Positions 2,154 to 31,410 are shown, counted from the first letter of the stretch. The stretch is 32,000 nucleotides of DNA from Candidatus Syntropharchaeum caldarium (GCA_001766815.1 LYOS01000003.1:145254-177253); one strand, 5' to 3'. The notes: generated by a model not told the origin, from the sequence alone. Translations and numbers: made by a program.

Positions 2154-2348
2154 TCAACCGCTGTGCGTTGACTCTATAAGTTCGATTGTATCATCTCCTC
2201 CTACAATTGAATCTTCTGGTATGATCCTCCCATCTTTTCTAATAAGATATAGAACAGGGTTGAGTGATAGGCTTCTTAAAAGCTCATCGACCCTCATTGT
2301 GGAGATGTCAACCTTTTTCTGAGATCCATCGGGTAATCTGATGATCAT
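2154..2348 (-). CDS. Small beta-grasp protein, ThiS/MoaD-like, with an atypical C-terminus
   Basis: 64 aa. The pattern ...RKDGRIIPEDSIVGGDDTIELIESTHSG resembles the ThiS/MoaD C-terminal pattern (DGD-x-hydrophobic-E-hydrophobic...GG), but it ends -HSG rather than -GG. Its ATG overlaps the thrC stop as ATGA at 2345-2348. Confidence 0.45.
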   Translation of the reverse strand: MIIRLPDGSQKKVDISTMRVDELLRSLSLNPVLYLIRKDGRIIPEDSIVGGDDTIELIESTHSG

Positions 2349-6973: not shown

Positions 6974-6975
6974 AT

Positions 6976-8187: not shown

Positions 8188-8204
8188 ATCACGCTTGAGG
8201 CGAC

Positions 8205-8822: not shown

Positions 8823-8855
8823 TAACTTCACTCCTGCAAAAAATAGATGTATGAA

Positions 8856-15127: not shown

Positions 15128-15143
15128 ATGAAGGTGTAAAAAC

Positions 15144-17096
15144 ATGTTCGAAAATATCAATTTCTTCATGCGTTTTGCATTCTCGATCTTTGGTCCACGA
15201 CTAAAGCGGAACAAGGATAACTATATTCAACTTCAGACAGATCTCAGGAAGGCGCGCATGCCGATCTCATATGATATGTATATGTCAGCAGCACAGGGCT
15301 ACGCACTGGTAGCAGGCATTTTTGGTGGCATACTGGGTCTTATACTTGCATATCTTATCATAAACGTATTTGGGATTCCTGATAACTTCACAAACCTGCA
15401 TTTACCACAGAGCCTTTTATGGATGAACGCACACGTGGAGACTCTGCTCACGATATTCCTCTTCTTCTTTACCGCGATGATATTTTCAGCAACGGTCTAT
15501 GTATTCTTCTACATATACCCTTCACTCGTTGCAGGAGGTAAGAAGGCAGAGATAAACAAGATGCTCCCGCATGGGATACGATTCATGTATGCACTCTCGA
15601 AAGGTGGTGCAAACATCATCGAGATATTGAGGGCGCTTGCAAGAAATGAAGATACATATGGTGAGATTTCGAAAGAAGCAGAGGCGATCATCAAGTACAT
15701 TGACTTTTTGGGGTACGATCTGAGAGAGGCGCTGCTTCACGCAGGTGAGGAGACGCCATCTGATAACTTCAGGGAACTCATTGATGGACTTCTGACAATA
15801 ATCGACAGTGGTGGGGACATGACTCGATTCCTCAGTGATAAGACGATCGAGTACATGCAGATCGCCAAGATTGAGCAGAAAGGATTCCTTGAAACGCTTG
15901 CGCTAATGGCTGAATCCTATGTGACAGCGTTTGTAGCGGGACCGCTCTTTATCATCATCATCGAGGTTGTGATGACGCTGATGGGTTCGGGGCAGATGAT
16001 GGCGCTCTATGCAATTATATATATGGTCATCCCGGTTGGATCGCTGATGTTTGTCATGATGATATATCTGATCTCGCCGAGTGACATTACAAATGCACCC
16101 ATTCTGAAGACCGAGTTCTCATATGATGCTGAAGATGTGGAGATTGAAGATGTTGATCCTGAAGATGTGGAGGCATACACTCAGTACAAAAAATCCAAGA
16201 AAACATATGCTTTAAAGGAGATGCTTAAGCATCCGCTCAAACCGTTCAAGGAGAATCCCATATTGGTACTCGCTGTGAGCGGTCCACTTGCTCTGATCAC
16301 CGTGATTGCGGGGGTTGGAATGAACTTCGATGACTTCAGGATGGACCCGGTGGGGGTCATCGATGACTATCTTGTGCTTGCTGCATTTGTGATGTTTCTG
16401 CCGCTTGTCATATTTTATGAAGCGAAACGGAGGCGACACAAGAAAATTAAATCCCAGGTGCCAAACTTTTTGAAAGGAGTTGCCAGCACAAACGCAAGTG
16501 GAATGACACTCACCCAGTCAATTGAGGTGATAGCAAAGTCAACAAGTGGAGCAATAGGAGAGGATATCGCCCGTATGTGGCGTGATCTTGAATGGGGGAT
16601 CAGCGTCAGGGATGCGTTTGTCCGTTTTGCAAACAGGGTCAAGATGGCATCGCTATCAAGAACTGTCACACTCCTGACTGAGACGATGCGAACGAGCGGG
16701 GAGGTTGCTGATACACTCTATCTCTCTGCAAAGGATACTGAGATGGCAGAGGAGCTTGATAGAGAACGGTTTACAAATATGCTGATTTATATAATTATAA
16801 TCTATATCGCATTCTTTGTATTCATAGGGATTATATTCATCATCTCAACCTCGTTCCTTCCTGTGATGGCATCGGCTGGAAAAGATGTTGCAAGTTCTGG
16901 TATGAGTGCAGAAGGCTTCCTTGGTGAGTTCGATATCGATCTCTTCAAGCGAATCTTCCTTCACGCATCGCTTCTGCAGGGATTCTGCTCAGGTCTTATT
17001 GCAGGCCAGATGGGGGAGGGGGAGTTTCTTGCAGGTTTTAAGCACTCGCTGATCATGGTCCTGATAGCATATATAGCGTTCACGGTGTTTATATGA
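15144..17096 (+). CDS. Polytopic membrane platform protein (FlaJ/ArlJ / TadC-like, two T2SS-F type domains)
   Basis: 650 aa with multiple TM segments and two cytoplasmic helical domains, IRFMYALSKGGANIIEILRALA... and FLKGVASTNASGMTLTQSIEVIA.... It starts 16 nt after the ATPase gene stop. Confidence 0.8.
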   Translation: MFENINFFMRFAFSIFGPRLKRNKDNYIQLQTDLRKARMPISYDMYMSAAQGYALVAGIFGGILGLILAYLIINVFGIPDNFTNLHLPQSLLWMNAHVETLLTIFLFFFTAMIFSATVYVFFYIYPSLVAGGKKAEINKMLPHGIRFMYALSKGGANIIEILRALARNEDTYGEISKEAEAIIKYIDFLGYDLREALLHAGEETPSDNFRELIDGLLTIIDSGGDMTRFLSDKTIEYMQIAKIEQKGFLETLALMAESYVTAFVAGPLFIIIIEVVMTLMGSGQMMALYAIIYMVIPVGSLMFVMMIYLISPSDITNAPILKTEFSYDAEDVEIEDVDPEDVEAYTQYKKSKKTYALKEMLKHPLKPFKENPILVLAVSGPLALITVIAGVGMNFDDFRMDPVGVIDDYLVLAAFVMFLPLVIFYEAKRRRHKKIKSQVPNFLKGVASTNASGMTLTQSIEVIAKSTSGAIGEDIARMWRDLEWGISVRDAFVRFANRVKMASLSRTVTLLTETMRTSGEVADTLYLSAKDTEMAEELDRERFTNMLIYIIIIYIAFFVFIGIIFIISTSFLPVMASAGKDVASSGMSAEGFLGEFDIDLFKRIFLHASLLQGFCSGLIAGQMGEGEFLAGFKHSLIMVLIAYIAFTVFI

Positions 17097-17130
17097 AACG
17101 CATGATTTATTGGTGGGGTTTGCGTTTTTG
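17097..17130 (+). terminator. Hairpin plus T-tract after the flaJ-like gene
   Basis: AACGCA (17097-17102) pairs with TGCGTT (17121-17126) and is followed by TTT. It begins immediately after the stop codon at 17094-17096. Confidence 0.45.
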
Positions 17131-17204
17131 ACCTGTGCATAAGCGAAGATTGCCCCTGGTAACCTCTGTGTTCGTTTCACATGGGCATGCCACCCCATTC
17201 ACAA

Positions 17205-17238
17205 GGATCTTCCTTCACACATCGATTCTGCAGGAATC
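17205..17238 (+). repeat. Degenerate second copy of a 35-nt segment from the flaJ-like 3' end (first copy at 16951-16985)
   Basis: GAATCTTCCTTCACGCATCGCTTCTGCAGGgattc compared with GGATCTTCCTTCACACATCGATTCTGCAGGaatc: 27 of the first 30 positions are identical by hand alignment. In the flaJ frame, the second copy would read RIFLHTSILQESG*, against RIFLHASLLQGFCSG... in the gene. Confidence 0.7.
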
Positions 17239-17380
17239 AGGCTAACTTTATCCCTATAGATTTGAGTTGGAAAGTCCCATGGTGTTGTTGTTTCAAATGG
17301 GGCTGTTGTTTTTATCGAGTTTAGCACCCATTCTGGTTTAAGTATCCTTTGAGTGTGCGGTGCGTTTCTTTTGATGTCTT

Positions 17381-17596
17381 TTACCTCTCCTTTCCAGCCA
17401 ACCTCTCTTTGATCCAGTCCCATCCATTCCTGAAGAAACTCCTGTAGTTATCCTTCAACCACTCATAAAAATCATCTTCAACATACTTACAGAACAGGTC
17501 TGCCAGTTCATCAAAAGAAATGCCTTCTGGCAGTTCGATCTCATCATATTCCATCTCTTCTTTCAGAAACTCCTTTACCAGTTCCCTGTCTATCAT
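17381..17596 (-). CDS. Small, very acidic hypothetical protein; third gene of the restriction-modification operon
   Basis: MIDRELVKEFLKEEMEYDEIELPEGISFDELADLFCKYVEDDFYEWLKDNYRSFFRNGWDWIKERLAGKER. ATG 17596 is preceded by GAGGT, 5 nt upstream. It begins 13 nt after the endonuclease stop. No HTH was recognised. Confidence 0.5.
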   Translation of the reverse strand: MIDRELVKEFLKEEMEYDEIELPEGISFDELADLFCKYVEDDFYEWLKDNYRSFFRNGWDWIKERLAGKER

Positions 17597-17609
17597 TTTT
17601 AACCTCAAT

Positions 17610-18338
17610 CTAAGATGATTCCAGTTTCCATCTCAATATATCGAAGATTAGATCATCAAACGGTCTTACCTTCTGGCAATATGCTGTGTGATGCTCATAG
17701 TTAGGATCGTCAAAGTAAGTCGTGGATTTCATTCTAACGAGTTCTAAATCATCGAGCTGATCAAAGAAACCCTTAAAACGCTCTATGTCTGCTTTTAGCT
17801 CTGGATCGTCTGTGCTCGCATAGTTCTTGATGATGTATATCCCATCTGTAAAACTCTCCAGCAATCTTCTCGCAGATGTGGATTCATCGCATGATTTTCC
17901 AAGTTCGCTCCTTTTCTTTCTGTATTGATCGGCGTCCTGTGTTAAACAGACGTATTTTATATTTGTGCTGATTCTGACGGTCAAACCCCAGAATGTAACC
18001 ATAACCTCTCTTGAATGGAATGAGACCTTACAGTTGATGACCCCCAAGATCTTCCAGTCTCCATCTAAGTGGTATAAAATGAGAATGTCGGTATCTGGAT
18101 ACTCATCTATCTGTTTCTGCCTGCAGCTATTCTTTACAGGTAGCTTGTTATATTCGATCAGGCAATCTGCAAGTACCTCGCTCTTTAGAAATTTGACCAA
18201 AGGGTTTCTTTCACCTTTGACCGCATAAATATCGTGTGAATTTAAAAACTGGTTCAAGATGTGAATTGCGATATCTTCAAGCCGCCTCCCGATCCTGGTT
18301 CTTTGACTTTGAGCGGTTTTATCATCCAAAATCGCCAT
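17610..18338 (-). CDS. Putative type II restriction endonuclease (PD-(D/E)xK-like)
   Basis: It lies 24 nt downstream of the methyltransferase gene. The candidate catalytic segment is YPDTDILILY...GVINCKVSFHSRE, that is PD ... xCK. The family was not recognised with confidence. GC is low in spot counts. Confidence 0.55.
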   Translation of the reverse strand: MAILDDKTAQSQRTRIGRRLEDIAIHILNQFLNSHDIYAVKGERNPLVKFLKSEVLADCLIEYNKLPVKNSCRQKQIDEYPDTDILILYHLDGDWKILGVINCKVSFHSREVMVTFWGLTVRISTNIKYVCLTQDADQYRKKRSELGKSCDESTSARRLLESFTDGIYIIKNYASTDDPELKADIERFKGFFDQLDDLELVRMKSTTYFDDPNYEHHTAYCQKVRPFDDLIFDILRWKLESS

Positions 18339-18362
18339 GATTTTACCTCGTACTTTTCGCCA

Positions 18363-19169
18363 TCATACGATCTCTTCAGCCACTATGTCGAGCTTAAGTT
18401 GATTTATGCCCGCCTCTGATATCAACCTGTTCTTTGCAATCTCACAGTATTCTCTATCGATCTCAACCCCTATTCCCTTCCTGCCAGTCAGGGCACAGGC
18501 GACCAGGGTTGTACCACTACCCATAAAAGGATCGAGCACCGTATCACCCACAAATGTGAATAACTTTATACATCTTCTTGGAAGCTCAAGGGGAAACGGT
18601 GCAGGATGCCCGATTCGTTTTTTACTCTCACCTGAGAAGTTCCATACCCCATTTGTCCACTCCATAAACTCATCCTTCACAATATCGGACTTTCCACTTC
18701 CGCTCGTCTTCTTCCAGCTATTCTTATACAGGACTGCGATCATCTCAACAGGGGCTATAACATAAGGAGCCGATGCAGAGAGCCATGAGCCCCATGCAGT
18801 TCTTCTCGATATATTCTGCTCATTCCAGATGATCGTTGAGTGATAGTTCCAGCCGATCTGCTTTGCGATGGTGACAATATCAGCATAGACACTTTGCTGT
18901 CCTCCTTTGTTCTTATCAAGCGGTATGTTCAGGCAGAACCTCCCATCATCTTTAACAAGATTGTATGCTCGCTCAAGCCATTTTTCTGTAAATTCAAGAT
19001 AAAGATCGTACGGAATCTCATCATCAAAAGAGCCGTAGCCGATATCGACGTTGTAAGGGGGAGAAGTTACGATTAAGTCTATTGTGCTATCTTCAATAGA
19101 TCGGTTGGCTAAGAAATCATCGTTGTATATCGTTATATCTCTGATCTGAAAGTAAGGGTCTCTGCTCAT
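18363..19169 (-). CDS. DNA methyltransferase, beta-class N4-cytosine/N6-adenine family (motif IV SPPY suggests N4-C)
   Basis: Motif IV DLIVTSPPYN is N-terminal. Motif I VLDPFMGSGTTLVACALTGRKGIGVEIDREY is C-terminal. HPAPFPLELP precedes motif I. This circular permutation is typical of the N4/N6 beta group. Confidence 0.85.
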   Translation of the reverse strand: MSRDPYFQIRDITIYNDDFLANRSIEDSTIDLIVTSPPYNVDIGYGSFDDEIPYDLYLEFTEKWLERAYNLVKDDGRFCLNIPLDKNKGGQQSVYADIVTIAKQIGWNYHSTIIWNEQNISRRTAWGSWLSASAPYVIAPVEMIAVLYKNSWKKTSGSGKSDIVKDEFMEWTNGVWNFSGESKKRIGHPAPFPLELPRRCIKLFTFVGDTVLDPFMGSGTTLVACALTGRKGIGVEIDREYCEIAKNRLISEAGINQLKLDIVAEEIV

Positions 19170-19198
19170 CTCCTACCCCTCAACCTGCAAGCTATATA

Positions 19199-20491
19199 TC
19201 ACTTTTCACGGTCTTCCTCAAAAAGCTCCACACAGGCTTTTGCCGCTCTAACAGAACCTTCAATGCTTCGTTCTGGATAGTTCGCACCTGAGAACATACC
19301 TGCGATATAGAGGTCGTCTATTGCTGTTCTGTATGGTTTGATCAGTCTCTTAAATCCAACACGGTATATTGGTCCTGCATCAGGCGTTCTTGTGATGCGC
19401 CACCAGTTGATATCATCTGCTGTAAAATCTGGAAAGAGCTTCTTGATACCATCGATGAACTGAGCCGTAACCGCCTCCTCGCTCAGCTTCCAGCGCGGGT
19501 CGTCCTCACGTTGAAAGTAGGATGCAACATAGAGCAGACTCTCACCACCATACCATGAACGGGGTGCAAAGTTTGTGTGCTCAATCAACGCCCCAAAGGG
19601 AAGGTCGCCGGCGATGTTGAGCCAGTATATTCCATCAAGAAGTGGTCGCTTCAGTCCAAAGAGCGCACAGCATGCACCCTGATATGGCAGATCCCCCACA
19701 TCGAGATCGCTTATCGCATCAAGCACGCGGGGAGAGACTGTTGAGATTACCTTATCAAACTGATAACTTTTTTTTCTGGATTTAAGCCCTGAAATTCTCC
19801 CTTTTTCTGTCAGAATTTTTGTAACAGGTTCATCTGTCTGTATTTTCCCACCCTGCTTCAGGATCTCTTCTTTGAGCCGATCTATGAGGTACTGAAAACC
19901 ACCTTCCATGTACCCAAGATGTTCACCACCTGCAGATCTATCTGATCTGATCCTGATTCTGCCAAAGAGCCATGCAGCAGAGATGTTTTTTCGCTCATCT
20001 TCAAATTTACTCCGCAGGAGTGGTTCAAAAAAATTTTTATAGACTCGTCTACCCCCGATTCGCTCAATCACGTCCCGTGCTCTCACCTGATCGAGCTTAT
20101 CAAACGATCCGAACTTTGTTCGAAGAACAAGTGCAGCAAGCCTCACCTTATCAGAGAGTGTCAGGTGTGGGAACTTCAAAATCTCCTTCGGTGTTGTGAG
20201 CGGATACAGTTTGCCACCCACATAATATCCGGTACTCCCCTTCAGCCACAGGAGCCGCTCTGAGAGTCCAAGTTCCTCGATCAAACCGATCAATTCACGA
20301 TCACTCCTGAAGATGTGATGGTAGAAACACTCAATATTGTAGCTCACACCCCCTTTGCTAATATGGTAACTTCCAAGCAGGCCTCCCACATCCTCTTCAG
20401 ATTCAAATATTACGACATCATGGCCTTTCTTCGAGAGATAGTAACCTGCAACAATTCCTGTCACTCCGCCACCGATGATGCCTACCCTCAT
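19199..20491 (-). CDS. FAD-dependent oxidoreductase (amine oxidase / phytoene desaturase / protoporphyrinogen oxidase-like)
   Basis: The N-terminal dinucleotide-binding motif is MRVGIIGGGVTGIVAGYYLSKKGHDVVIFESEEDVGG. 430 aa. The specific substrate cannot be assigned. Confidence 0.7.
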   Translation of the reverse strand: MRVGIIGGGVTGIVAGYYLSKKGHDVVIFESEEDVGGLLGSYHISKGGVSYNIECFYHHIFRSDRELIGLIEELGLSERLLWLKGSTGYYVGGKLYPLTTPKEILKFPHLTLSDKVRLAALVLRTKFGSFDKLDQVRARDVIERIGGRRVYKNFFEPLLRSKFEDERKNISAAWLFGRIRIRSDRSAGGEHLGYMEGGFQYLIDRLKEEILKQGGKIQTDEPVTKILTEKGRISGLKSRKKSYQFDKVISTVSPRVLDAISDLDVGDLPYQGACCALFGLKRPLLDGIYWLNIAGDLPFGALIEHTNFAPRSWYGGESLLYVASYFQREDDPRWKLSEEAVTAQFIDGIKKLFPDFTADDINWWRITRTPDAGPIYRVGFKRLIKPYRTAIDDLYIAGMFSGANYPERSIEGSVRAAKACVELFEEDREK

Positions 20492-20500
20492 TAAACCACA

Positions 20501-21283
20501 TCACGTACCGATCTCAATGGGTTCAGTGATTCGTTTTATCGCTGAAATTGCCGAAAGAGCCGCTAAAAAACTGGTTTTTGGGTTCGAAGGAGATGGCAGA
20601 TTCTCAAAACGCATCTTCATCCTTCCAAACGCTCCTTCAATCTCAACTTCGTGGATATTACGATCTATCATGGGATCCTGTATCACCACGACCTCGGTCA
20701 GATCTGGACCAATACCAGCGAGACTCAGTGTGAGTGAGACGTTTATATTTGCAGGAAAGCGTTTGACAGCCTCGCGTGCAGAGCCTTCAAACAAAACCCG
20801 CTCCTTTAGCGCCTCGTCTCCCTCAACCCCAAGCGTCTGTGGCGGTTTCCTTGTTGTGATCCTGACCTTTTCAATTTTTGATTCTGCGGCTGCCCTGAGA
20901 CCATCAATTCCTGCAATTGCACCAGACGGGATGTAAACCTTACAGTGCTTCTCTTCCGAGATTCTTTTTATCTCATCAAGAAGTTCATCATCGGCAAGTG
21001 CACCGACACTCATGATCATGGCATTCTTTCCAGCTTTAAGTGCAGGCAGAATAAATTCGCGGACCGCCCCCTGAGATGCAGCCTCGATGATCAGATCACA
21101 GGCCTTGATCATGCCTTCAAAATCAAATATCTCAGGTGGATCTTTGAGGAGACCTGATATGTATGCTGTTTTTTGAGGGTGCCGATCGTACAGAGCTCTG
21201 ATCTTCAGACGGTCAGCCTCAGCAAGACCTCTCACGATTGCTTCTGTGATTGCACCGCAGCCGATGATGCCAATATTTAACAT
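20501..21283 (-). CDS. nadX: L-aspartate dehydrogenase
   Basis: MLNIGIIGCGAI (Rossmann motif), ...IPSGAIAGIDGL..., ...NP.TS.LAALS... 260 aa. This matches the TM1643-type aspartate dehydrogenase pattern. Confidence 0.75.
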   Translation of the reverse strand: MLNIGIIGCGAITEAIVRGLAEADRLKIRALYDRHPQKTAYISGLLKDPPEIFDFEGMIKACDLIIEAASQGAVREFILPALKAGKNAMIMSVGALADDELLDEIKRISEEKHCKVYIPSGAIAGIDGLRAAAESKIEKVRITTRKPPQTLGVEGDEALKERVLFEGSAREAVKRFPANINVSLTLSLAGIGPDLTEVVVIQDPMIDRNIHEVEIEGAFGRMKMRFENLPSPSNPKTSFLAALSAISAIKRITEPIEIGT

Positions 21284-21373
21284 GATCTAAAACTGTGATA
21301 GAAGAGCGACTACTTAAAATTACCGAAACACCTCAAGGAGATTCTGAAAGCACAAAGATTAAAAAATGATAAG

Positions 21374-21410
21374 TAATATATAGAGCTATTCTAAATACAG
21401 TTGGACGGAG
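21374..21410 (+). promoter_or_regulatory. Candidate TATA box and SD site upstream of the mcrB-like gene
   Basis: TAATATATA at 21374-21382 lies about 37 nt upstream of ATG 21419. GGACGGAG at 21403-21410 is a candidate ribosome-binding site. Confidence 0.45.
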
Positions 21411-21418
21411 TTGAGTTT

Positions 21419-22777
21419 ATGAAAGAGAGAAATGACGTCATAGATCTCTACGATGAGAAGGGAGATATGCTTGCAGAAGCCATCCCTCTGCAGGCAATAA
21501 GTCCACTTCGTAATCAGGCCATCAGAGAGATGATCAAGACTATCAAAAGGTCTGCGATTATTAATCTCAAGAAGGCAGAGCAAGCATTGAAGACCGGTGC
21601 ACTCGGTAGTGAGATGGGTGTAGGCGAGGAGTGTCAGATACCAGGATGTGAGATGGATCTTGATATCGTGGCGAACGCCGGCGCGATTGCAGAGATGATC
21701 AAAAAGTGGATACAGGTCGACGAAGATGATGATACTGTTGTCGAGATTGTTGATGGTGGCGAGATGCTATTCATCCTTGCCCCAACAAAAAGAGTTGATG
21801 TTGGGAGTGACCTCGCAAACCCGCGTGTGAACGTTGGGATTGCGGCTGCACATGCAATAATCGAGTATTTCAACCTCTCACCGTTCAGTGGTAGTGAGGT
21901 TATCAAAGCTGCCATATTCGGCAGGTATCCGCAGTCAATAACCACAAAGGGTGCCTTATCAGGATTAATTCCTGCCTGGCCTCCAACCGTTGATGGTGTT
22001 GGTTTGAACTTCAGGACAAATATGGTGAATGATATCGTGGCAATGACAAACAAGAATACGATGAACGGCGTTGCACTCTCATCGATCCTTGAGCACGTAG
22101 CCATGTTTGATTCAGGGGATGCAATCCACCCTGCCTATGAGCGATACCACCTGCTCGGTCTTGCCTACCAGGGCCTGAATGCAAACAACGTGGTTTATGA
22201 TATCGTGAAGGCAAATGGCGCTGATGGAACGATTGGATCTGTAATAATGGATACAATCAAACGTGCAGAGGATGATGGAGTTATATCAGTAAAAGAAACG
22301 CTCCCCTCAGGATTCAAGATCTACAAAACAGATGATGCGTCTCTCTGGAACTCTTACGTTGCAGCAGGACAGCTTGCAGCAGTTATTGTTAACTGTGGAG
22401 CGATGAGGGCGGCACAGGGTGTCCCTGCCACGATAAATGAGTTCAATGATATATTGAAGCTCGCAACAGGGCTTCCCGATGTTGACTATGGGCGTGGACT
22501 TGGAACAACGATCGGTACTGCATTCTATTCACACAATATATATGGTGGAGCGGGCCCTGGAGCATTCTCACCTGCAAACCCGCTACTTCGACATTGCAGA
22601 GGCTTTATCAGTCCGTGCTTCGTGGCTGCGATGTGTCTTGATGCAGGCACCCAGATGTTCAATCCAGAGCTGACATCAGGCGCTTTCCTGAAAATCAGAA
22701 CCGTTCTGCCTGAAGTGATGAGAAATCCAATCAAATCGGTTGCAGAGTCGGCACTTGAACTTAAAGGAGCTTTGTGA
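21419..22777 (+). CDS. mcrB: Methyl/alkyl-coenzyme M reductase beta subunit homologue (divergent)
   Basis: The N-terminus MKERNDVIDLYDEKGDMLAEAIPLQAISPLRNQAIREMIKTIKRSAIINL parallels the canonical McrB start M..F.DK.DLYDDRG....VPLEA.SPL.N.AI..I....KR...VNL. The start is reset from TTG 21401 to ATG 21419. Confidence 0.85.
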   Translation: MKERNDVIDLYDEKGDMLAEAIPLQAISPLRNQAIREMIKTIKRSAIINLKKAEQALKTGALGSEMGVGEECQIPGCEMDLDIVANAGAIAEMIKKWIQVDEDDDTVVEIVDGGEMLFILAPTKRVDVGSDLANPRVNVGIAAAHAIIEYFNLSPFSGSEVIKAAIFGRYPQSITTKGALSGLIPAWPPTVDGVGLNFRTNMVNDIVAMTNKNTMNGVALSSILEHVAMFDSGDAIHPAYERYHLLGLAYQGLNANNVVYDIVKANGADGTIGSVIMDTIKRAEDDGVISVKETLPSGFKIYKTDDASLWNSYVAAGQLAAVIVNCGAMRAAQGVPATINEFNDILKLATGLPDVDYGRGLGTTIGTAFYSHNIYGGAGPGAFSPANPLLRHCRGFISPCFVAAMCLDAGTQMFNPELTSGAFLKIRTVLPEVMRNPIKSVAESALELKGAL

Positions 22778-22790
22778 GGAGGTTATAACG

Positions 22791-23564
22791 ATGAGAGAAT
22801 TTCAGATTCCGTATCCGGGTGATGACCCGGTTGCAAACAACCGAAAAAAGTGGATGAACTCTGAATTCACCCCAAGAAAGCTTAGAGAGATCAGTGATGA
22901 TGATATTGTAAGTCTTTTGGGGCACAGAAAACCAGGGACAGCATACTCATCTGTACATCCACCGCTTGATGAGATGAAAGAGGCGGCAGATCCAATAAAA
23001 GAGCTTGTTGTGCCGACGGATGGGGCAAAGGCAGGAGATCGAATCAGATACATCCAGTTTGCAGATTCAATGCACTTCGCACCTCTCCCCCCATGGATGC
23101 GGTTCAGGATGTATGGTGCGCGCCTGCGAGGGTTTGACTCGCTTGCATATTCAGGAAGGACACTCCTTGAGATGCGAGAGCGAGATCTTGATGAAACGGC
23201 CAAGTTTCTTGTTGAGACCGAAATCTTCGATGCTTCAAGGGTTGCAATGCGTTCTGTGACTGTGCATGGCTTCTCACTGAGACTGGATGAGGATGGGTTG
23301 ATGTTTGATGCCCGAAGGCGATACGTCTTCAACAAAGAGACAGGGGAAGTTGAGTATGTGAAGACACAGCGAGCAACGCCGCTCGACCGGCGAATTTCGG
23401 TTGGTAAACCGCTACCTGAAGATGAGCTTAAAACCCTCACGACGCGATACCATACCGCCCTGACATCCCCACGTGATGCGGATGAGCTGATAAAAGTTGT
23501 GAAGCGAGTGGGAGAACTGAGAGTTCTTGGGGGCTTAAGGCCAGATCTTGTAGATGGGAGGTGA
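22791..23564 (+). CDS. mcrG: Methyl/alkyl-coenzyme M reductase gamma subunit homologue
   Basis: Motifs seen are PGDDPVANNRKK, LREISDDDIVSLLGHRKPG, SVHPPLDEM, DGAKAGDRIRYIQFADSM, EMRERDLD, VHGFSLRLDEDGLMFD. Each matches a canonical McrG block. ATG 22791 is preceded by GAGGAGG. Confidence 0.9.
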   Translation: MREFQIPYPGDDPVANNRKKWMNSEFTPRKLREISDDDIVSLLGHRKPGTAYSSVHPPLDEMKEAADPIKELVVPTDGAKAGDRIRYIQFADSMHFAPLPPWMRFRMYGARLRGFDSLAYSGRTLLEMRERDLDETAKFLVETEIFDASRVAMRSVTVHGFSLRLDEDGLMFDARRRYVFNKETGEVEYVKTQRATPLDRRISVGKPLPEDELKTLTTRYHTALTSPRDADELIKVVKRVGELRVLGGLRPDLVDGR

Positions 23565-23570
23565 TTTTGG

Positions 23571-25256
23571 ATGGCAGTAGATAAAAAAACACACATAAAA
23601 TTACTTGAAGAGACGTTTAAAGTTTCACCGACTGATATCGTTGATAAAAAACTCTATCAACATGGTGGAACACGCCAGTCCAAGCGGAAGACTGAATATA
23701 TTGAGTATGCAAACAGAATTGCAAAAGAGCGTGGAATTCCCGCATACGACCCTGATCACATCGCACTTGAACTTGAGGTTGGTGTACCACTGGGTCAGCG
23801 ATACCTCGAGCCTGTAAAGATCAGTGGTACGGATGTCATGTGTGAGTATGAGGATCTTCACATCATGAACAATGTGGCGATCGAACAGATGGTCGATGAT
23901 ATCTTCAGAACGGCAATAGTGTGCATCGATCTTCCACACAAGGTTCTTGTGGACAGGTATGGATTTGAGGTGACTCCTGAGTCAATAAATACATACCTTG
24001 AGACGATCAATCACACGATGGTTGGTGGTGCGGTCACACAGGAGCATATGTGCGAGATGCATCCTGGACCCTGTGCCGATGGTTATGTCAAGATATTTAC
24101 AGGAAACGATGAGGTGGCCAGTTCACTTGACTCGCGATTTGTGATCGATATAAACAAGGAGTTTACACCAGAGAAGGCAGCAAAACTGAAAGAGGGGGTT
24201 GGAGATAGTCTCTGGCAGGTTTCAAGAGTTCCAACACATGCACTGAGGACGATGGATGGTGCCATCATCCACAGATGGAACGCGATGGGGCAGACGATGG
24301 CGTTCATCGCATCATACCACCTCTGTGCAGGTGAGGCTGCAATCTCAGACTTCGCCTATGCTGCAAAACATGCACAGTACATCTGGATGGGAACACCACC
24401 ATTTGTCTCAAAAGCGAGAGGGCATAACTCTGTGGTTGGACTTCCTGTAGGTTATATATTTGATATCATACAGCATGAGTCGGCGATGCCAGATGATCCA
24501 ATCCCGGTCAGTGCTGAAGGACTTGCGATGGAGTCGATCCTCTACTTCGCGCTCTACTACGGACAGATGATGATCGGTACTGTAGGTGTTACCGTTGCTC
24601 CGGCCACGTTCTATGTGAATGAACTCTACGAGAGCAGGGGTGCTCATCTTGTGGACTGGATCAAAGACAAATATGGAGGAATAGCCCAGGCACCGATGAA
24701 CTGGGACACAATCCATGATTGTACAGATGAGGCAACGATGGCAGCGATCGAAGAATATGATACCTACCCGCTGCTTCCAGAGCATCACTGGGGACTGATC
24801 CAGGCTGTACAGATCTCGTTGATCAGCAGTGCATGCGCTGCCTGGGCAACAGGGAAACCGATGGCTGGAGCGCTTGCAGCCCACTACTGCATGTCTTTCG
24901 TGCAGAAGGAAGCGCTGATGCGTACTGGCTGGGGTGGACAGGAATCCACGCACCATCCGGCGATGCCTGCGATGACATCTGTGCTTCTGGATGAGGGTCT
25001 GCCAGTAGAACTTACCGGTATCAATGTTCCGTTCAGATCTCCGTTTGCCGACTCACAACACTATACATCACATAGTGTTGTTGCAGCACATGAGGCAAGA
25101 ATGGATGCATGGGCGTTGTCGCCGATTGTGAAGGTTGCGTTTGCAGACCCCCACCTCCCATTCAACTTCCGCAATGTACGGGAGTCCGTAGCGAAGGGTG
25201 CACTCAGGGAGTTTGAGCCTGCGGGTGAGAGGGACGTACTAAGACCTACTAAATGA
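23571..25256 (+). CDS. mcrA: Methyl/alkyl-coenzyme M reductase alpha subunit homologue with a rewritten substrate pocket (candidate alkyl-CoM reductase)
   Basis: Conserved blocks: RGIPAYDPD, VPLGQR, EDLHIMNN, EVTPE, YLETINH, VTQEHM, YVKIFTGNDE, FVIDINKEF, AGEAAISDFAYAAKHA, DEGLP.EL, KVAFAD, KGALREFEPAGER. Divergent where canonical McrA has GGVGFTQYATAAY, FYGYDLQDQCG and RGPNYPNYAMNVGHQ (details in findings). Confidence 0.9.
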   Translation: MAVDKKTHIKLLEETFKVSPTDIVDKKLYQHGGTRQSKRKTEYIEYANRIAKERGIPAYDPDHIALELEVGVPLGQRYLEPVKISGTDVMCEYEDLHIMNNVAIEQMVDDIFRTAIVCIDLPHKVLVDRYGFEVTPESINTYLETINHTMVGGAVTQEHMCEMHPGPCADGYVKIFTGNDEVASSLDSRFVIDINKEFTPEKAAKLKEGVGDSLWQVSRVPTHALRTMDGAIIHRWNAMGQTMAFIASYHLCAGEAAISDFAYAAKHAQYIWMGTPPFVSKARGHNSVVGLPVGYIFDIIQHESAMPDDPIPVSAEGLAMESILYFALYYGQMMIGTVGVTVAPATFYVNELYESRGAHLVDWIKDKYGGIAQAPMNWDTIHDCTDEATMAAIEEYDTYPLLPEHHWGLIQAVQISLISSACAAWATGKPMAGALAAHYCMSFVQKEALMRTGWGGQESTHHPAMPAMTSVLLDEGLPVELTGINVPFRSPFADSQHYTSHSVVAAHEARMDAWALSPIVKVAFADPHLPFNFRNVRESVAKGALREFEPAGERDVLRPTK

Positions 25257-26095
25257 AGGTTGTAGCAGGAAGAGCATCAGCAGTACTCGGTTCAAGGGTT
25301 GCGGATGTGATTGAGGCAGATCTTGCCTTGACCGAGTTTGCACTCTTCCCCGATGCTGAACTCTACACTCGTGTTGTAGATGATCTGGTGGGCGATGAGG
25401 TTGTAATTGTCCAGAGCACGCCCACCGACACTGATTTTATCTGCCTCCTCCAGCTGATCGATGCGTGCGAGGGGGCATCCCGTATTTCAGTTGTAATTCC
25501 ATACTTTGGATATGCAAGACAGGACAAACGGTTCAAGATGGGTGAAGCAGTGACGGCTCGCGCGCTTGCAGGAACTGTCGAAGCAGACCGTATATTCACG
25601 ATAAATATTCACGACCAGAACGTGATCAATTACTTTAAATCTAAAGCATGTGATCTTGATGCTGCACCCGTGATTGGATCGTACATCAGTTCGCTGAACC
25701 TCAAAAACCCGGTTGTTATTGCACCTGATGATGGGGCGAAGGAGCTTGCGAAAGCCGTAGCATCAGAAGAAGGACTGAGCTGGAACTGGCTCAAAAAGAA
25801 GCGAATCGATGCTGATACAGTGGTAATTGATGATAAAGATCTCGACGTCGAAGGAAGAGATGTTGTGATCGTTGATGATATCATCTCAAGTGGTGGGACG
25901 ATCATGGAGGCAGCACGTATTCTGAAACAGAACGGTGCAGGTGCAATCTATGCCGGATGCGTACACGGCGTATTCGTGAAAAATGCAATTTTAAGACTTA
26001 AAAAAGCTGGAATCATACCTTTTTCAACCGACACAATCGAGTCGATCACAAGTTCAATGAGTGTCGCAGAGTGTATCGGTGCATCGATAATATGA
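25253..26095 (+). CDS. prs: Ribose-phosphate pyrophosphokinase (PRPP synthetase)
   Basis: Motifs seen are FPDAELYTRV, ...VIPYFGYARQDKRF, ...VVIVDDIISSGGTI (PRPP-binding loop). Its ATG overlaps the mcrA-like stop as ATGA at 25253-25256. Confidence 0.85.
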   Translation: MKVVAGRASAVLGSRVADVIEADLALTEFALFPDAELYTRVVDDLVGDEVVIVQSTPTDTDFICLLQLIDACEGASRISVVIPYFGYARQDKRFKMGEAVTARALAGTVEADRIFTINIHDQNVINYFKSKACDLDAAPVIGSYISSLNLKNPVVIAPDDGAKELAKAVASEEGLSWNWLKKKRIDADTVVIDDKDLDVEGRDVVIVDDIISSGGTIMEAARILKQNGAGAIYAGCVHGVFVKNAILRLKKAGIIPFSTDTIESITSSMSVAECIGASII

Positions 26096-26910
26096 TACAG
26101 ATATTTGGTGTGATTGGCGACCCCATCGGGCATTCGCTCTCGCCGGAGATGCATAACGCAGCATATCATGCACTGGGACTTGATTGTATATATCTGCCAT
26201 TCCACGTCAGAGCCGAAAGGCTGAGAGATGCGATCGAAGGGGCGGGGGCACTTGGAATAAGAGGGCTCAATGTGACGGTCCCACACAAAGTGGCTGTGAT
26301 GGAACTTGTAGAGCCAGATCTGCTTGCAAGAAAAATTGGCGCGGTAAATACGATCGATTTTGCCACATTAAAAGGATATAACACCGATGTAGCAGGAATC
26401 ACAGGCTCACTCGAATCTGCTGGAGTTGATCTCAGAGGCAAGCGTGTTCTTTTGCTTGGTGCAGGAGGGGCAGCGCGTGCAGCAGCATTTGCATCTATTG
26501 AAGCAGGTTGTAAACTTGTAATTGCAAACAGAACAAGATCAAAAGGTGAAAAGTTAGCAGATGAACTTGGAAGAGGGGTTAATGCAATTGGTCTCGAAGA
26601 TGATGAGATTGGGCCGGCTATAGCCGAATCCGATGTATTGATAAATGCAACGTCGGTGGGGATGTACCCTGAGATCGATAAAATTCCGATAAGGCCCGAA
26701 CTTCTGCACCCCGATCTTGTTGTTTTTGATCTGATATATAACCCATTAGAAACCATGCTCCTCAGTGAAGCAAAAAAGAAAGGATGTAAAACAATCAGTG
26801 GTGTGAAGATGCTTGTTTACCAGGGAGCCGCATCCTTCAGGATATGGCTGGGGATTGATCCACCTGTTGATGTGATGGAGACCGTTGTGAGGGAGAGATT
26901 GATTCTATGA
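26092..26910 (+). CDS. aroE: Shikimate 5-dehydrogenase
   Basis: Motifs seen are MIQIFGVIGDPIGHSLSPEMHNAAY, ...GLNVTVPHK, ...GAVNTI, ...GYNTD..G, ...LLGAGGAARA. The start is reset to ATG 26092, which overlaps the prs stop as ATGA. Confidence 0.85.
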   Translation: MIQIFGVIGDPIGHSLSPEMHNAAYHALGLDCIYLPFHVRAERLRDAIEGAGALGIRGLNVTVPHKVAVMELVEPDLLARKIGAVNTIDFATLKGYNTDVAGITGSLESAGVDLRGKRVLLLGAGGAARAAAFASIEAGCKLVIANRTRSKGEKLADELGRGVNAIGLEDDEIGPAIAESDVLINATSVGMYPEIDKIPIRPELLHPDLVVFDLIYNPLETMLLSEAKKKGCKTISGVKMLVYQGAASFRIWLGIDPPVDVMETVVRERLIL

Positions 26911-28235
26911 AAGTTATTATCATTGGCGGAGGGGAGGCGGGGTTTCATGTGGCAGCGAGTTTATCCAGAAAGAATGATGTCATCGTGATCGAGAAAGATC
27001 CTGAGGCATGCGAGCGGGTGGGAGAACTTGATGTGCAGGTGATACAGGGTAATGGCGCTGATGTCAAACTGATGCAACAGGTTGGGGTTAAAAAAGCCGA
27101 TCTTGTGGTCGCACTGACAGGTGTTGATGAGGTCAATATTGTTGCCTGCATGGGTGCAAAATTACTCTCCAGACGTGTGAAGACGATCGCGCGGGTGAGC
27201 AATCCAGATTATATCAATGAGCCGGTTGATCATCGTAAGGAACTCGGGATGGATGTAATGGTCTGCCCAGAGCTTTCGCTTGCTCGTGAGATTGCTCAGG
27301 TGGTTTCAATTCCAGCTGCGCTGGATGTTGAGAACTTTGTCGATGGTAAAGTGAAGATGGTAGAGTTTGAGGTGAAAGAGGGGCATGATATAGCAGGCAA
27401 GAAACTCAAGGATGCGGGTCTTCCTGCATACTGCATCGTGGCAGGTATATTCAGGGGAGATAGGCTTCTGATATCCTATGGCGACGATGTAATACAGCCA
27501 GGTGATAGGGTAGTTCTTGTTGGTGAGCTGGATGCACTTGATCTGATACAGGCGCGGTTTGGTGAGCTTGCAGGCAGAAAAAGGAAGATATTGATCGTTG
27601 GCGGTGGACAGGTTGGACTATATCTACTCGAAGAACTGACAAAAGCCGATCATGAAATTACGCTCATTGAGATAGATCAAGAACGGTGTATGGAGCTTGC
27701 AGAACGCTATCCAGATGTGCTTGTAATAAATGGGGATGGCGCAAATCTGAAACTTTTGAAGGAAGAAAACCTTTCAGAAAAGGATGTGGTGGTTGCTGTG
27801 ACTGACAGGGATGAGAAAAATCTACTCTGTGCCCTGCTTGCAAAACAGCTTGGTACAAGAAAAGCGATATCCAGAACAGACCATGCCGATTACACCACAC
27901 TCTTTGAGATGGTTGGTGTCGATGTAGCAATCAATCCGATACTTGCTACCGTGAATGAGGTTATGAAGTTCACCATGAGTATTGGTGTTGAGTCACTGGT
28001 AAATATCGAGGGTACACGAGCAAGTGCAATTGAGCTTATCGCAAAAGAGGGGAGTGAAATAGTAGGTAAACAATTGAAAGATGCACGATTCCCGAGAGGT
28101 GCCCTTGTCTCTGTTATTGTCAGGGGTGAAAAGGTGATCGTACCATCTGGAATGGATGTTATAGAAGCTGGTGACCGGGTTGTGATATTTAGCTACCCTG
28201 ACACGGTCGAAAAGGTGGAGAAGCTCTTTGAGTAG
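26907..28235 (+). CDS. trkA: Trk-type K+ uptake system NAD-binding subunit TrkA (duplicated RCK N+C domains)
   Basis: Two Rossmann starts, MKVIIIGGGEAG and ILIVGGGQVG, are each followed by a TrkA-C-like segment (G.....L.D..LP......I.R......P.G...I..GD.V). It overlaps the aroE stop as ATGA. Confidence 0.85.
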   Translation: MKVIIIGGGEAGFHVAASLSRKNDVIVIEKDPEACERVGELDVQVIQGNGADVKLMQQVGVKKADLVVALTGVDEVNIVACMGAKLLSRRVKTIARVSNPDYINEPVDHRKELGMDVMVCPELSLAREIAQVVSIPAALDVENFVDGKVKMVEFEVKEGHDIAGKKLKDAGLPAYCIVAGIFRGDRLLISYGDDVIQPGDRVVLVGELDALDLIQARFGELAGRKRKILIVGGGQVGLYLLEELTKADHEITLIEIDQERCMELAERYPDVLVINGDGANLKLLKEENLSEKDVVVAVTDRDEKNLLCALLAKQLGTRKAISRTDHADYTTLFEMVGVDVAINPILATVNEVMKFTMSIGVESLVNIEGTRASAIELIAKEGSEIVGKQLKDARFPRGALVSVIVRGEKVIVPSGMDVIEAGDRVVIFSYPDTVEKVEKLFE

Positions 28236-28241
28236 AGAAAG

Positions 28242-29678
28242 ATGAATTACGGAACCGTCTTCAATGTAATAGGCAAGCTGCTTATGACCCTTGGGGTGAT
28301 GATGCTCTTGCCACTTGCAGTAGCAATCTACTACGGCGAGCGCGCATCGATCGTGATCTTTGCGGTATCAGCCATCAGCACAACCTTAGCCGGTGTAGCC
28401 CTCTCGATCGCGTTAAAGTATGAGGATGAGTTTGGACGGCGGGAGGGTTTTGCTATTGTGGCGCTTGGATGGCTTGTCGTAACCATATTTGGTGCGATTC
28501 CTTATCTTCTTTTTGGGCTTTCTTCGATTGATGCACTCTTTGAATCGATGGCGGGCTTTACTACCACGGGCTCAACGATACTTATAGATATCGAGAGCTA
28601 CACACAGAGCTTTCTTTTCTGGCGAAGTCTCACGCAGTGGATGGGGGGCATGGGTATAATCGTGCTTGTACTTGCTATCGCGCCAGGGCTTGCAATTGGT
28701 GGACGGCAATTATTCCAGGCAGAGACGCCAGGGCCCTCATCTGACAAGCTGACACCTCGCCTGAAAGCTACCGCTGAGATACTCTGGATAGCTTATGTGT
28801 TGATATCGGTCGTAGAGATGGTGCTACTTTACCTCGCAGGACTACCACTCTATGATGCTGTAACAACGACATTCTCAACCATGGCAACAGGAGGATTCTC
28901 GCCCCGTGGTGAAAGTATAATGGCGTACCATAATCCGGTTGTAGAAATGATTGTAATGATATTCATGTTCATAGCAGGAGCAAACTTTGCACTCCACTAC
29001 AGGGCACTTCTGATCAGGAAGGATAGCCTCATCAGAGATCGTGAGTTTCAGATCTACGCCGGCATTTTGATCATGGCGTCACTCTTAATCGCGGCAGACC
29101 TTACACGTGGTGGACTGAATTTCTTTGAATCATTGCGCCTGAGTACGTTTCAGGCGGTATCGATCATGACAACGACCGGATTTGCAACCACTGACTTCAA
29201 TCAGTGGGGAGATTTTTCAAGAACAGTTCTCTTTCTGCTGATGTTTATTGGTGGTTGTGCGGGATCGACTGGTGGCGCGATTAAGGTGATGCGTGTATCG
29301 GTGATCGTAAAACACGGCTATATGGAACTCTTCAGAATGATTCATCCACGTGTCGTGAAGCCTCTCAGATTTGGGCGAAGAATAATATCTGCTGATGTTC
29401 TCAGATCGATATTTGCTTTCATTGCACTCTACATACTTGCTTTTGTGATAAGTACACTGATTCTTGCAGGTCTTGGCATTGATCTTGTAAGCAGCCTCAG
29501 CGCTTCTGCCACAACGCTCGGAAATGTTGGACCAGGATTTAATCTTGTGGGACCGATGGAAAACTTTGCGGGTTTGCCTGCAATTGGTAAGCTCGTCCTG
29601 CTCACGAACATGTGGATTGGTCGGCTTGAGGTGATCACAGTGCTCGTATTATTCACACCGGAATTCTGGAAGAAATGA
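28242..29678 (+). CDS. trkH: Trk/Ktr-type K+ transporter membrane subunit TrkH
   Basis: 478 aa, polytopic, with repeated selectivity-filter-like motifs: MAGFTTTGST, TMATGGFS, IMTTTGFAT, TLGNVGPG. Confidence 0.85.
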   Translation: MNYGTVFNVIGKLLMTLGVMMLLPLAVAIYYGERASIVIFAVSAISTTLAGVALSIALKYEDEFGRREGFAIVALGWLVVTIFGAIPYLLFGLSSIDALFESMAGFTTTGSTILIDIESYTQSFLFWRSLTQWMGGMGIIVLVLAIAPGLAIGGRQLFQAETPGPSSDKLTPRLKATAEILWIAYVLISVVEMVLLYLAGLPLYDAVTTTFSTMATGGFSPRGESIMAYHNPVVEMIVMIFMFIAGANFALHYRALLIRKDSLIRDREFQIYAGILIMASLLIAADLTRGGLNFFESLRLSTFQAVSIMTTTGFATTDFNQWGDFSRTVLFLLMFIGGCAGSTGGAIKVMRVSVIVKHGYMELFRMIHPRVVKPLRFGRRIISADVLRSIFAFIALYILAFVISTLILAGLGIDLVSSLSASATTLGNVGPGFNLVGPMENFAGLPAIGKLVLLTNMWIGRLEVITVLVLFTPEFWKK

Positions 29679-29803
29679 TGATGAGAATAGATCTTAGATA
29701 GGGACCGACCCCTTTCTTTCCACTCCAGCACATCATTAAATACATGGTTGCATTCTTCTGGCATTTCCAAAAAGAATTTATTAAATGTTAACAACTGAAA
29801 GAT

Positions 29804-30331
29804 ATGGAGGAGAAAATTAACAATATAAGCCGCAAAGTCGATAGCGTTCTCACAGATGACTGGATTGAGGGGTTTGAACTTGGATGGAGCTGGGTTGTAG
29901 ATTTTGAAACAGAGATGTATCGTCTTTTTCCATATGAGAAGGAGAGTGATATACTGAGAGTTCTTTATGACGCGGGATATAATTCAGGAATAAAACTCGG
30001 AAAAGGGATTCTGAATTACTTTGAGCTTGAATCAAAGAGTCTGAAGGAACGAGCGCGTTATTTTGATGCTTTTCTTTCAAGGATTCAGATTGCAACGATC
30101 AAGTTCTCAAAAAGAGAAAAACATCGTGCCCTTACATTCGTGGGAGGTACACCATTTGCAAGGGCATTTTTGGGCGTAACAGAATATGCAATCTGTTATC
30201 ATACCGCAGGAATTATCGCTGGCTGCACCAAAGCACTTTTTGATAGGGACGTGGTTGTGGTTGAGTCAAGGTGTCTTGCCAGAGGGGATAATGATTGTGA
30301 GTTTCGGGTATGGCCGGATGAACTGGAGTGA
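29804..30331 (+). CDS. Stand-alone V4R (4-vinyl reductase) domain protein
   Basis: The C-terminus ...ICYHTAGIIAGCTKALFDRDVVVVESRCLARGDNDCEFRV matches the V4R signature C...G...G........E..C...G...C.F. Confidence 0.7.
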   Translation: MEEKINNISRKVDSVLTDDWIEGFELGWSWVVDFETEMYRLFPYEKESDILRVLYDAGYNSGIKLGKGILNYFELESKSLKERARYFDAFLSRIQIATIKFSKREKHRALTFVGGTPFARAFLGVTEYAICYHTAGIIAGCTKALFDRDVVVVESRCLARGDNDCEFRVWPDELE

Positions 30332-30412
30332 TGATAATAAAACAGGTAGATTACGTTACCACAAAACTTTATATGTTATTTGTGATATTACAGCAGTAAG
30401 AGGGTAATCGAA

Positions 30413-30853
30413 ATGGATTTAAACGATTGTATTAAATTTGCGAATGAAAATCCTGTCTGTTATGTTGCAACAGTAGATGGAGATCAGCCGAGAGTCAGGG
30501 CGTTTTTAATGTGGTTCGCTGATGAAACCGGTTTTTACTTTCACACCGCAGCCACAAAATCGGTTTACAAACAGTTAAAAGCAAATCCAAAAACAGAAGT
30601 GTGCTTTTATGCTGCAGATACACCACCCGCTGGCGGCAGGATGATGAGAGTTTCAGGTAAGGTTGAATTTCTTGATGATGCAGAACTTAAAACACGGCTA
30701 TTTAAAGAAAGACCTTTCTTAAAGATGACCGGACTGAAAGCGCCGGATAAACTTCCGCCAGTTGCGATCTTCAGAATATATACCGGTGAAGCTCATTTTT
30801 GGACCATGGAGGATAATATAAAAGAGTCAGAAATTGAGAGAATAAGCTTTTAG
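30413..30853 (+). CDS. Pyridoxamine 5'-phosphate oxidase-family FMN-binding split-barrel protein
   Basis: 146 aa. ANENPVCYVATVDGDQPRVRAF...FYFHTAATKSVYKQLKANPKTEVCFY is the typical PNPOx-like general stress protein pattern. Confidence 0.65.
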   Translation: MDLNDCIKFANENPVCYVATVDGDQPRVRAFLMWFADETGFYFHTAATKSVYKQLKANPKTEVCFYAADTPPAGGRMMRVSGKVEFLDDAELKTRLFKERPFLKMTGLKAPDKLPPVAIFRIYTGEAHFWTMEDNIKESEIERISF

Positions 30854-30897
30854 AGTGTGTTAAAGGCGCGAGGAAGCACCGTTATCTCGGTTAAGAG

Positions 30898-31410
30898 GTG
30901 GGACGTGGTGTTTTGAGGCGGTTGGAAATCGAAAGAAAATTTCCAGTTGAAGTCTTTGAGGATCCAAGGGCAAAAGAAATTAAATTTCTACGATGTATCC
31001 AGTGTGGAAGATGCACCGGCGGCTGTCCCGCAGCTTACGTCTTTGATGATTTCTCACCGCGAAAAGTAATACTCAAGCTTCTTGAAGGAGAAATAGATGA
31101 CCTTCTCAGGAAAGATTTGATATGGCACTGCGGTCAGTGTTATACATGCCATATGAGATGTCCCAGAGGAAACAGCCCGGCAACAGCAGTTTTGATTTTG
31201 AGAGAGCTTGCGCTTGAACGGGGTTATTCAATTGGTAAAGTAAAAGAGATCGCAGATCAGTGTGGCAGACTGATGTGGGCAAAGGGTGTTAACTTCTATG
31301 GGGAAGGCTCAAGAGAGCTTTCAGATGAAGCAATTTGTGAGGTGCAGGAAGTTCTCAAACAAAGCGGTTATAAATCATTTCTCGAAATGCTGGGGGTTGA
31401 TCTTCCTTGA
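30898..31410 (+). CDS. hdrC: Heterodisulfide reductase subunit C-like (2x[4Fe-4S])
   Basis: CIQCGRCTGGCP and CGQCYTCHMRCPRGNSP are HdrC-type cluster motifs. The start is uncertain (GTG 30898 or TTG 30913). Confidence 0.75.
   Translation: MGRGVLRRLEIERKFPVEVFEDPRAKEIKFLRCIQCGRCTGGCPAAYVFDDFSPRKVILKLLEGEIDDLLRKDLIWHCGQCYTCHMRCPRGNSPATAVLILRELALERGYSIGKVKEIADQCGRLMWAKGVNFYGEGSRELSDEAICEVQEVLKQSGYKSFLEMLGVDLP

Follow-up and report, generated by a model that had tools for sequence, protein, structure and literature searches.

An mcrB-mcrG-mcrA-type operon in the genome of Candidatus Syntropharchaeum caldarium (GCA_001766815.1) raises the question of whether its products form a canonical methyl-coenzyme M reductase (MCR) or an alkyl-coenzyme M reductase (ACR). 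With ACRs, the chemistry of MCR reaches beyond methane to multi-carbon alkanes, and it is by these enzymes that a whole guild of anaerobic alkane oxidisers among the archaea is defined. The operon lies in a stretch of 32,000 nucleotides of contig LYOS01000003.1 (positions 145254-177253), here called the window, whose first letter is position 1 of all coordinates given below. An original prediction, made from the sequence alone, had read the three genes as a candidate ACR operon, and our analysis supports this interpretation through both the placement of the enzyme in an ACR clade and the substitutions at its pocket residues. We consider the three genes to be one of the four ACR paralogues of Ca. 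Syntrophoarchaeum caldarius, with a probability of roughly 0.88.

OFV67773.1 of Ca. S. caldarius has the same sequence as the window alpha subunit (100% identity), and 14.9 kb of the window DNA (17079-32000) is 100% identical to the Logan assembly of run SRR3669912. Ca. S. caldarius and Ca. S. butanivorans are the two archaeal members of Butane50, a thermophilic culture that oxidises butane. According to a review of Laso-Perez et al. 2016 (PMC9118554), the genomes of both species encode four divergent MCR homologues, and the four gene sets of S. caldarius are all operons (PMC9081873). Because the gene is identical to a published S. caldarius gene and four operons have been reported, the locus has already been published as a candidate ACR: it is one of the four mcrBGA-type operons of S. 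caldarius published in 2016, and the ACR reading is correct but not new. The paralogue represented by OFV67773.1 and, in S. butanivorans, by OFV65760.1 is this very locus, with no difference from the window; the orthologue OFV65760.1 has an alpha subunit 82-83% identical to that of the window and the same B-G-A-prs-aroE gene order. As the locus is among the founding examples of ACRs, its confirmation adds no new biology, and what interest is left lies in how the four paralogues of one genome share the work between them.

Three intact genes of the MCR superfamily

Three open reading frames (ORFs) on the plus strand encode the beta, gamma and alpha subunits (Table 1), separated as predicted by gaps of 13 nt (22778-22790, between B and G) and 6 nt (23565-23570, between G and A). 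The operon had been taken to begin at 21374, but positions 21374-21376 are an in-frame TAA. The beta frame can be drawn from 21401 or 21419, and the likely start is the ATG at 21419, which gives a protein of 452 residues, agrees with the gene called independently on a contig of identical sequence and fits the length of the beta orthologues (452-453 residues). The original prediction had also assigned a GGAGG-type ribosome-binding site to each gene; this stands for the gamma and alpha genes, where GGAGG lies 8-9 nt 5' of the ATG (22778-22782 and 23557-23561), but not for the beta gene, whose start is preceded by GGAG only (21407-21410). The leader upstream of the beta gene also contains a TATA-like TAATATATA at approximately 21375-21383, which may be part of a promoter.

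All five MCR Pfam domains exceed their gathering cut-offs, with MCR_beta_N at 176 bits and MCR_beta at 336 bits in the beta subunit, MCR_gamma at 327 bits in the gamma subunit, and MCR_alpha_N at 346 bits and a weak C-terminal MCR_alpha (62.5 bits) in the alpha subunit. Each subunit aligns over its full length to MCR chains in the PDB, the beta subunit with 446 bits to 3pot_B, which places the products in the MCR superfamily and bears out the predicted homology of all three. The architecture of three subunits and their domains is that of MCR I from M. marburgensis (3pot/5a0y). Scores against equivalog profiles are lower: the alpha subunit reaches 544.5 bits against TIGR03256, the NCBIfam McrA equivalog, for which the trusted cut-off is 767.75, and the beta subunit falls marginally below the cut-off of TIGR03257 (516.1 versus 516.25 bits), while the gamma subunit lies above its own NCBIfam equivalog cut-off. 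Among PDB structures, methanogen MCRs match the alpha subunit with about 470 bits, whereas both the MCR of anaerobic methanotrophic archaea of group 1 (ANME-1; 3sqg) and the ethyl-coenzyme M reductase (ECR; 7b1s) reach only about 330 bits, the latter being the lowest-scoring match for alpha, beta and gamma alike. A representative ANME-1 McrA matches those canonical structures with about 660 bits, so that the window alpha subunit is much further from canonical MCR than is that of ANME-1.

No MCR_C, MCR_D or ABC-ATPase (AtwA-like) domain was found when every substantial ORF in the 32 kb was scanned with Pfam, and tblastn searches of the window with McrC and McrD from the Methanocaldococcus and Methanolobus operons gave a single chance match (E = 3.6), in agreement with the predicted lack of mcrC, mcrD and atwA-like genes. 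Homologues of McrC and McrD have been reported elsewhere in Syntrophoarchaeum genomes (PMC6474303). The BGA order is kept in every orthologous locus examined. The arrangement without mcrC and mcrD had been offered as a sign of an ACR; the order is real, but it is not diagnostic, as 36 of the 81 scanned loci have neither gene within 6 kb of mcrA. Because these include canonical-type Methanomethylicales loci, gene order alone is weak evidence, and we rejected the proposition that BGA order by itself identifies an ACR.

The ratio of non-synonymous to synonymous substitution rates (dN/dS), estimated against two Syntrophoarchaeum orthologues, is 0.06-0.08 for acrB, acrG and acrA; dS is near saturation, so that these values are approximate, yet they are far below 1. 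Selection at the codon level thus indicates an enzyme that is functional and is maintained by purifying selection.

Clade membership and substitutions in the active site

Alpha-subunit trees were built by neighbour-joining from 69 sequences and 548 aligned columns, with Kimura and with gamma distances and 200 bootstraps. The input came from 80 named loci of GTDB species genomes and from representatives recovered in protein searches, among which a search of representatives at 50% identity supplied the ANME-1, ECR-like and Helarchaeota outgroup sequences. The window alpha subunit belongs, with 100% bootstrap support, to a subfamily containing S. butanivorans and Syntrophoarchaeum sp. (83% identity each), other Syntropharchaeia metagenome-assembled genomes (MAGs; 66-72%), both Alkanophaga species (63-64%) and a tar-biofilm MAG (65%). 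This subfamily, referred to here as OFV67773-type, groups with Syntrophoarchaeum copies 2 and 3 and with the ACRs of Helarchaeota and Hadarchaeota (95-96% bootstrap), and all of these fall in a wider divergent clade that includes the ECR-like S. caldarius protein OFV68676 (97-99%). The alpha subunits of methanogens, Archaeoglobi, Methanomethylicia and ANME-1 all lie outside the divergent clade. Separate trees of the N-terminal and C-terminal halves of the alpha subunit gave the same placement, and the same 14-member ACR clade was recovered for beta (100%) and gamma (99%); a position outside the canonical methanogen and ANME McrA clades therefore holds in neighbour-joining trees of all three subunits. 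In published trees, too, the ACR branch takes in the genes of Alkanophaga and Syntrophoarchaeum (PMC10322722, PMC6474303, PMC9118554).

The 69 sequences were aligned with MAFFT L-INS-i, and residues are numbered according to M. marburgensis/thermautotrophicus with 41 canonical McrAs as the reference. The alpha subunit retains Gln147, the axial ligand of nickel (window Gln157), as well as Arg225, Lys256, His257 and Gly445, the thioglycine site (window Gly456). It departs from canonical McrAs at the following positions, all of them (nearly) invariant there: Q230G, R270S, R271K, F330V, Q332V, Y333A, F396W, Q400I, W427H and F443W, and further Y444G, Y446Q, D447E, D450H, C452P, M480P, N481F, V482A and H484S. 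At positions 330, 333, 443, 444, 481, 270 and 271 the only exceptions among the 41 canonical sequences are one Y333D, one R270K and three Y444F. The pocket substitutions had originally been read from an alignment made by eye, and the MAFFT alignment confirms them with no shift. Of the six classical modification sites, R271K, Q400I, D450H and C452P abolish four, and only His257 and Gly445 are left. In the beta subunit Phe361 and Tyr367 are retained and Phe362 is replaced by Tyr, so that Gln147, His257, Gly445, beta-Phe361 and beta-Tyr367 are held in common with canonical MCR, whereas the pocket aromatics and residues of the coenzyme B (CoB) channel are replaced.

The extent of this divergence was counted over 173 columns that are invariant or nearly so in 40 canonical McrAs. 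The window alpha subunit keeps 114 of these (66%), compared with 91% for ANME-1 and 65-73% for other ACRs, and deviates at 58 (34%). Most of the deviations (38 of 58) are in columns where most other ACRs deviate too, and ten show the same derived state as other ACRs, including D447E and Y446Q. Derived states shared in this way include F396W (11 of 11 other ACRs), A479S (10 of 11) and V482A (9 of 11), and the GW(G/A)GQE motif is common to the window enzyme and to Syntrophoarchaeum copies 2 and 3 and the Helarchaeota and Hadarchaeota enzymes, which likewise have no adjacent mcrC or mcrD.

The subfamily nevertheless differs from these other ACRs, to which the window alpha subunit is only 42-45% identical. 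It carries R270S/R271K and a 7-residue insertion after residue 60 (window residues 64-70, IALELEV), which is only 4 residues long in Syntrophoarchaeum copies 2 and 3. Its loop 239-246 is intact, whereas the other ACRs of the clade carry a one-residue deletion there, a deletion that has been tied to an open cleft for longer alkanes (PMC9118554). The intact loop suggests a pocket that is closed but enlarged and would be suited to a short chain; a larger cavity is also predicted, by comparison of residues, from F330V and Y333A. The related acrBGA of Ca. Alkanophaga (Zehnle et al. 2023, PMC10322722) is contiguous and shares the 100% subclade. It also shares F330V, F443W and Q400I, but has Y333G where the window has Y333A, and Tyr-Leu at residues 480-481 in place of Pro-Phe. 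The growth substrates of Alkanophaga are C5-C14 alkanes, and the acrA cluster on which it depends is another one, which is highly expressed (PMC10322722).

Several related loci were encountered in these searches. Contig LYOR01000007.1 of S. butanivorans (29319-58011) carries two ACR operons with alpha genes about 15 kb apart, one being the orthologue of the window operon and the other a paralogue only 44% identical to the window alpha subunit. An orthologous BGA operon, with an alpha subunit 69% identical, is present in MAG GCA_054798995.1 (locus positions 207-4044). The label of this MAG is Candidatus Methanospirareceae, a family that belongs to the ANME-1 order Methanophagales, so that either its binning or taxonomy is at fault or an ACR has been retained in a methanotroph lineage. 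Two very divergent McrA-like proteins, from MAGs labelled Methanosuratincola sp. (where it is annotated 'hypothetical') and Methanomassiliicoccales, keep 60-62% of the canonical-invariant columns and join the divergent clade by neighbour-joining. The two may represent additional lineages of ACR-like enzymes, in groups that are known for canonical MCR.

Function, substrate and competing readings

By homology to solved MCR and ECR structures, the products would form an alpha2-beta2-gamma2 complex with the nickel cofactor F430. The predicted reaction, in the oxidative direction, is that of an alkane with the heterodisulfide of coenzyme M (CoM) and CoB, CoM-S-S-CoB, to give alkyl-S-CoM and HS-CoB, as the opening step by which multi-carbon alkanes are oxidised anaerobically. 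Two of the aromatic residues that close the methyl pocket of MCR are exchanged for small ones (F330V and Y333A) and, together with the altered CoB-channel residues (R270S, R271K, M480P and N481F), these changes would make room for a C3-C4 chain. The nearby hdrCBA genes would handle the heterodisulfide couple, and mtd would act in the downstream C1 branch.

Nothing in the sequence specifies the substrate, as the original prediction had conceded. In PMC9118554, the Butane50 culture is described as forming butyl-CoM and propyl-CoM, as inhibited by 2-bromoethanesulfonate, and as using no methane, ethane, pentane or hexane; the butyl- and propyl-CoM are reported there for the culture as a whole and not for the paralogue of the window. 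Because the culture makes propyl- and butyl-CoM and uses no C1, C2, C5 or C6 alkanes, propane or butane is the likeliest substrate.

A number of points weigh against the ACR reading as a whole. The raw identity of the alpha subunit to canonical McrA (44.8%) is not below that to other ACRs (43.5%), so that membership of the ACR clade rests on tree inference and shared derived residues, and the trees are of the neighbour-joining kind, which is vulnerable to long-branch attraction. The shared derived residues and the agreement with published maximum-likelihood trees argue against such attraction. The catalytic function of the OFV67773.1 paralogue is predicted from homology. Only about 2% of the cells in the culture belong to S. 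caldarius, whose role has been called unclear (PMC11543930), and the most-expressed ACR of S. butanivorans is a different paralogue, OFV67021 (PMC9118554), of which the OFV67773.1 paralogue is not an orthologue. In Alkanophaga high expression is confined to the cluster-3 acrA, which stands apart from its BG genes (PMC10322722); it is therefore probable that the contiguous orthologues of the window operon belong with the weakly expressed ones.

This small share of cells, the higher expression of another paralogue and the pattern in Alkanophaga make it possible that the OFV67773-type subfamily is an auxiliary or specialised ACR. Its substrate or role would then differ from that of the main butane enzyme: it might act on propane or on another chain length, activate a secondary carbon, or work in the direction of alkane formation. 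We regard this as a possible, though less probable, account. It is favoured by the presence of four paralogues per genome with a different one most expressed in S. butanivorans (PMC9118554), by the strong expression of just one of the three Alkanophaga clusters (PMC10322722), and by a signature peculiar to the subfamily, comprising the insertion after residue 60, the intact 239-246 loop, Y333A/G and N481F/L; the strong purifying selection also argues for a maintained function. The sequence specifies no such substrate, however, and a culture that used propane and butane only (PMC9118554) leaves little room for others.

More doubtful still is a stronger form of this proposal, according to which the subfamily, with R270S added to its signature, is a functionally distinct ACR and not a redundant butane enzyme. 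Such an enzyme could be specialised for propane, activate secondary carbons or run the alkane-forming back reaction, and it may be expressed constitutively through translational coupling of acrA to prs-aroE-trkAH. If this were true, the BGA operon in the MAG labelled as belonging to an ANME-1c family would mark the retention of an ACR inside a methanotroph lineage. With its distinctive pocket and its strong purifying selection, the subfamily is in any case a reasonable target for studies that assign roles to the paralogues.

The remaining readings are very improbable. A canonical MCR, serving methanogenesis or methane oxidation, would fit the gamma subunit, which passes its equivalog cut-off, and the retention of Gln147, His257 and Gly445; moreover, the best matches by score outside the clade are canonical McrAs (43-48% identity), and those to PDB MCRs reach 470 bits. 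It is largely refuted, and was rejected, on the alpha score of 544 against a cut-off of 768 bits, the changes at 58 of 173 invariant positions, including Phe330, Tyr333, Phe443 and Asn481, and the position outside all canonical and ANME-1 clades in the trees of the three subunits; the source culture, too, oxidised no methane (PMC9118554).

An ECR like those of Ethanoperedens and Argoarchaeum is hardly more plausible. The ECR of Ca. Ethanoperedens thermophilum (7b1s) is, like the window enzyme, a divergent homologue of MCR and acts on an alkane other than methane, as is predicted for the window enzyme, which comes from an archaeon that oxidises short-chain alkanes. But 7b1s is the weakest PDB match of the alpha subunit (330 bits), which has 561 residues compared with 595 and neither the ECR insertions nor their Met axial ligand, the ligand being Gln in the window. 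The ECR-like copy of S. caldarius is a separate gene, OFV68676, which scores 507 bits to 7b1s and is 32% identical to the window alpha subunit, and the culture used no ethane (PMC9118554). We therefore rejected this reading on score, length, axial ligand and the existence of OFV68676. A decaying or non-functional duplicate, to which the probably low expression in related organisms and the many altered catalytic-site positions might point, was rejected as equally improbable in view of the three intact frames, the low dN/dS and the orthologues that are 62-83% identical and carry the same substitutions across Syntrophoarchaeum, Alkanophaga and further MAGs.

Neighbouring genes and other features of the window

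Table 1. Coordinates of the ACR operon and of associated genes in the window.
Feature	Position	Strand	Basis
Intergenic leader 5' of the beta gene, A/T-rich	21284-21418	+	Read from sequence
acrB/mcrB-like, beta subunit, 452 aa	21419-22777	+	Pfam, PDB match, gene call, tree
acrG/mcrG-like, gamma subunit, 257 aa	22791-23564	+	Pfam MCR_gamma, PDB matches, tree
acrA/mcrA-like, alpha subunit, 561 aa	23571-25256	+	OFV67773.1 identity, residues, indels, trees
prs-aroE-trkA-trkH, tightly packed, co-directional	25253-29678	+	Sequence, Pfam, gene calls
prs	25253-26095	+	
aroE	26092-26910	+	
trkA	26907-28235	+	
trkH	28242-29678	+	
hdrC-like gene	30913-31410	+	NCBIfam HdrC match, below equivalog cut-off
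hdrB, cut by window end	31407-32000	+	NCBIfam HdrB match, below equivalog cut-off
mtd, F420-dependent methylene-tetrahydromethanopterin dehydrogenase	3565-4383	-	Pfam MTD 414 bits

At the acrA/prs junction the stop and start codons overlap (ATGA), and the prs/aroE and aroE/trkA junctions are each overlaps of 4 nt. S. butanivorans and Syntrophoarchaeum sp. are colinear with the window over B-G-A-prs-aroE, with a DNA identity of about 75%. From this packing, the transcription unit may extend past BGA into the housekeeping genes.

The methanogenesis-type context claimed for the window was recovered in each of its parts, namely mtd, hdrCB at the window end and the molybdenum/tungsten (Mo/W)-cofactor genes, the last consisting of two moeA and one mobA. 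The product of mtd scores 410 bits against its NCBIfam equivalog, above the cut-off of 297, and the gene is methyl-branch Wood-Ljungdahl context. On the SRR3669912 contig (13835-17225) the hdr genes continue as hdrC-hdrB-hdrA, with a full HdrB containing a CCG domain and an HdrA with a FlpD/MvhD-like domain; hdrA lies just beyond the window end, and the hdrC-hdrB-hdrA cluster is about 5.6 kb downstream of acrA.

Near mtd, on the minus strand, two tandem moeA paralogues and the mobA-like gene occupy 5732-8831 and form a Mo/W-cofactor maturation cluster that presumably serves formylmethanofuran dehydrogenase. A flavodoxin/ferredoxin fusion of the EFR1 family is encoded at 4450-5274, beside mtd and the moeA/mobA genes. 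A type II restriction-modification pair, comprising a BsaWI-like endonuclease (242 aa) and an N4/N6 DNA methyltransferase (268 aa), is found at 17610-19169 (minus strand). Archaeal type IV pilus genes are present at 176-667 (minus strand) and 13349-17096 (plus strand); the set comprises a pilin with a Pilin_N domain, a PilB-like ATPase (592 aa) and a PilC/T2SSF-like membrane protein (650 aa), and may be relevant to cell-cell contact in a syntrophic consortium.

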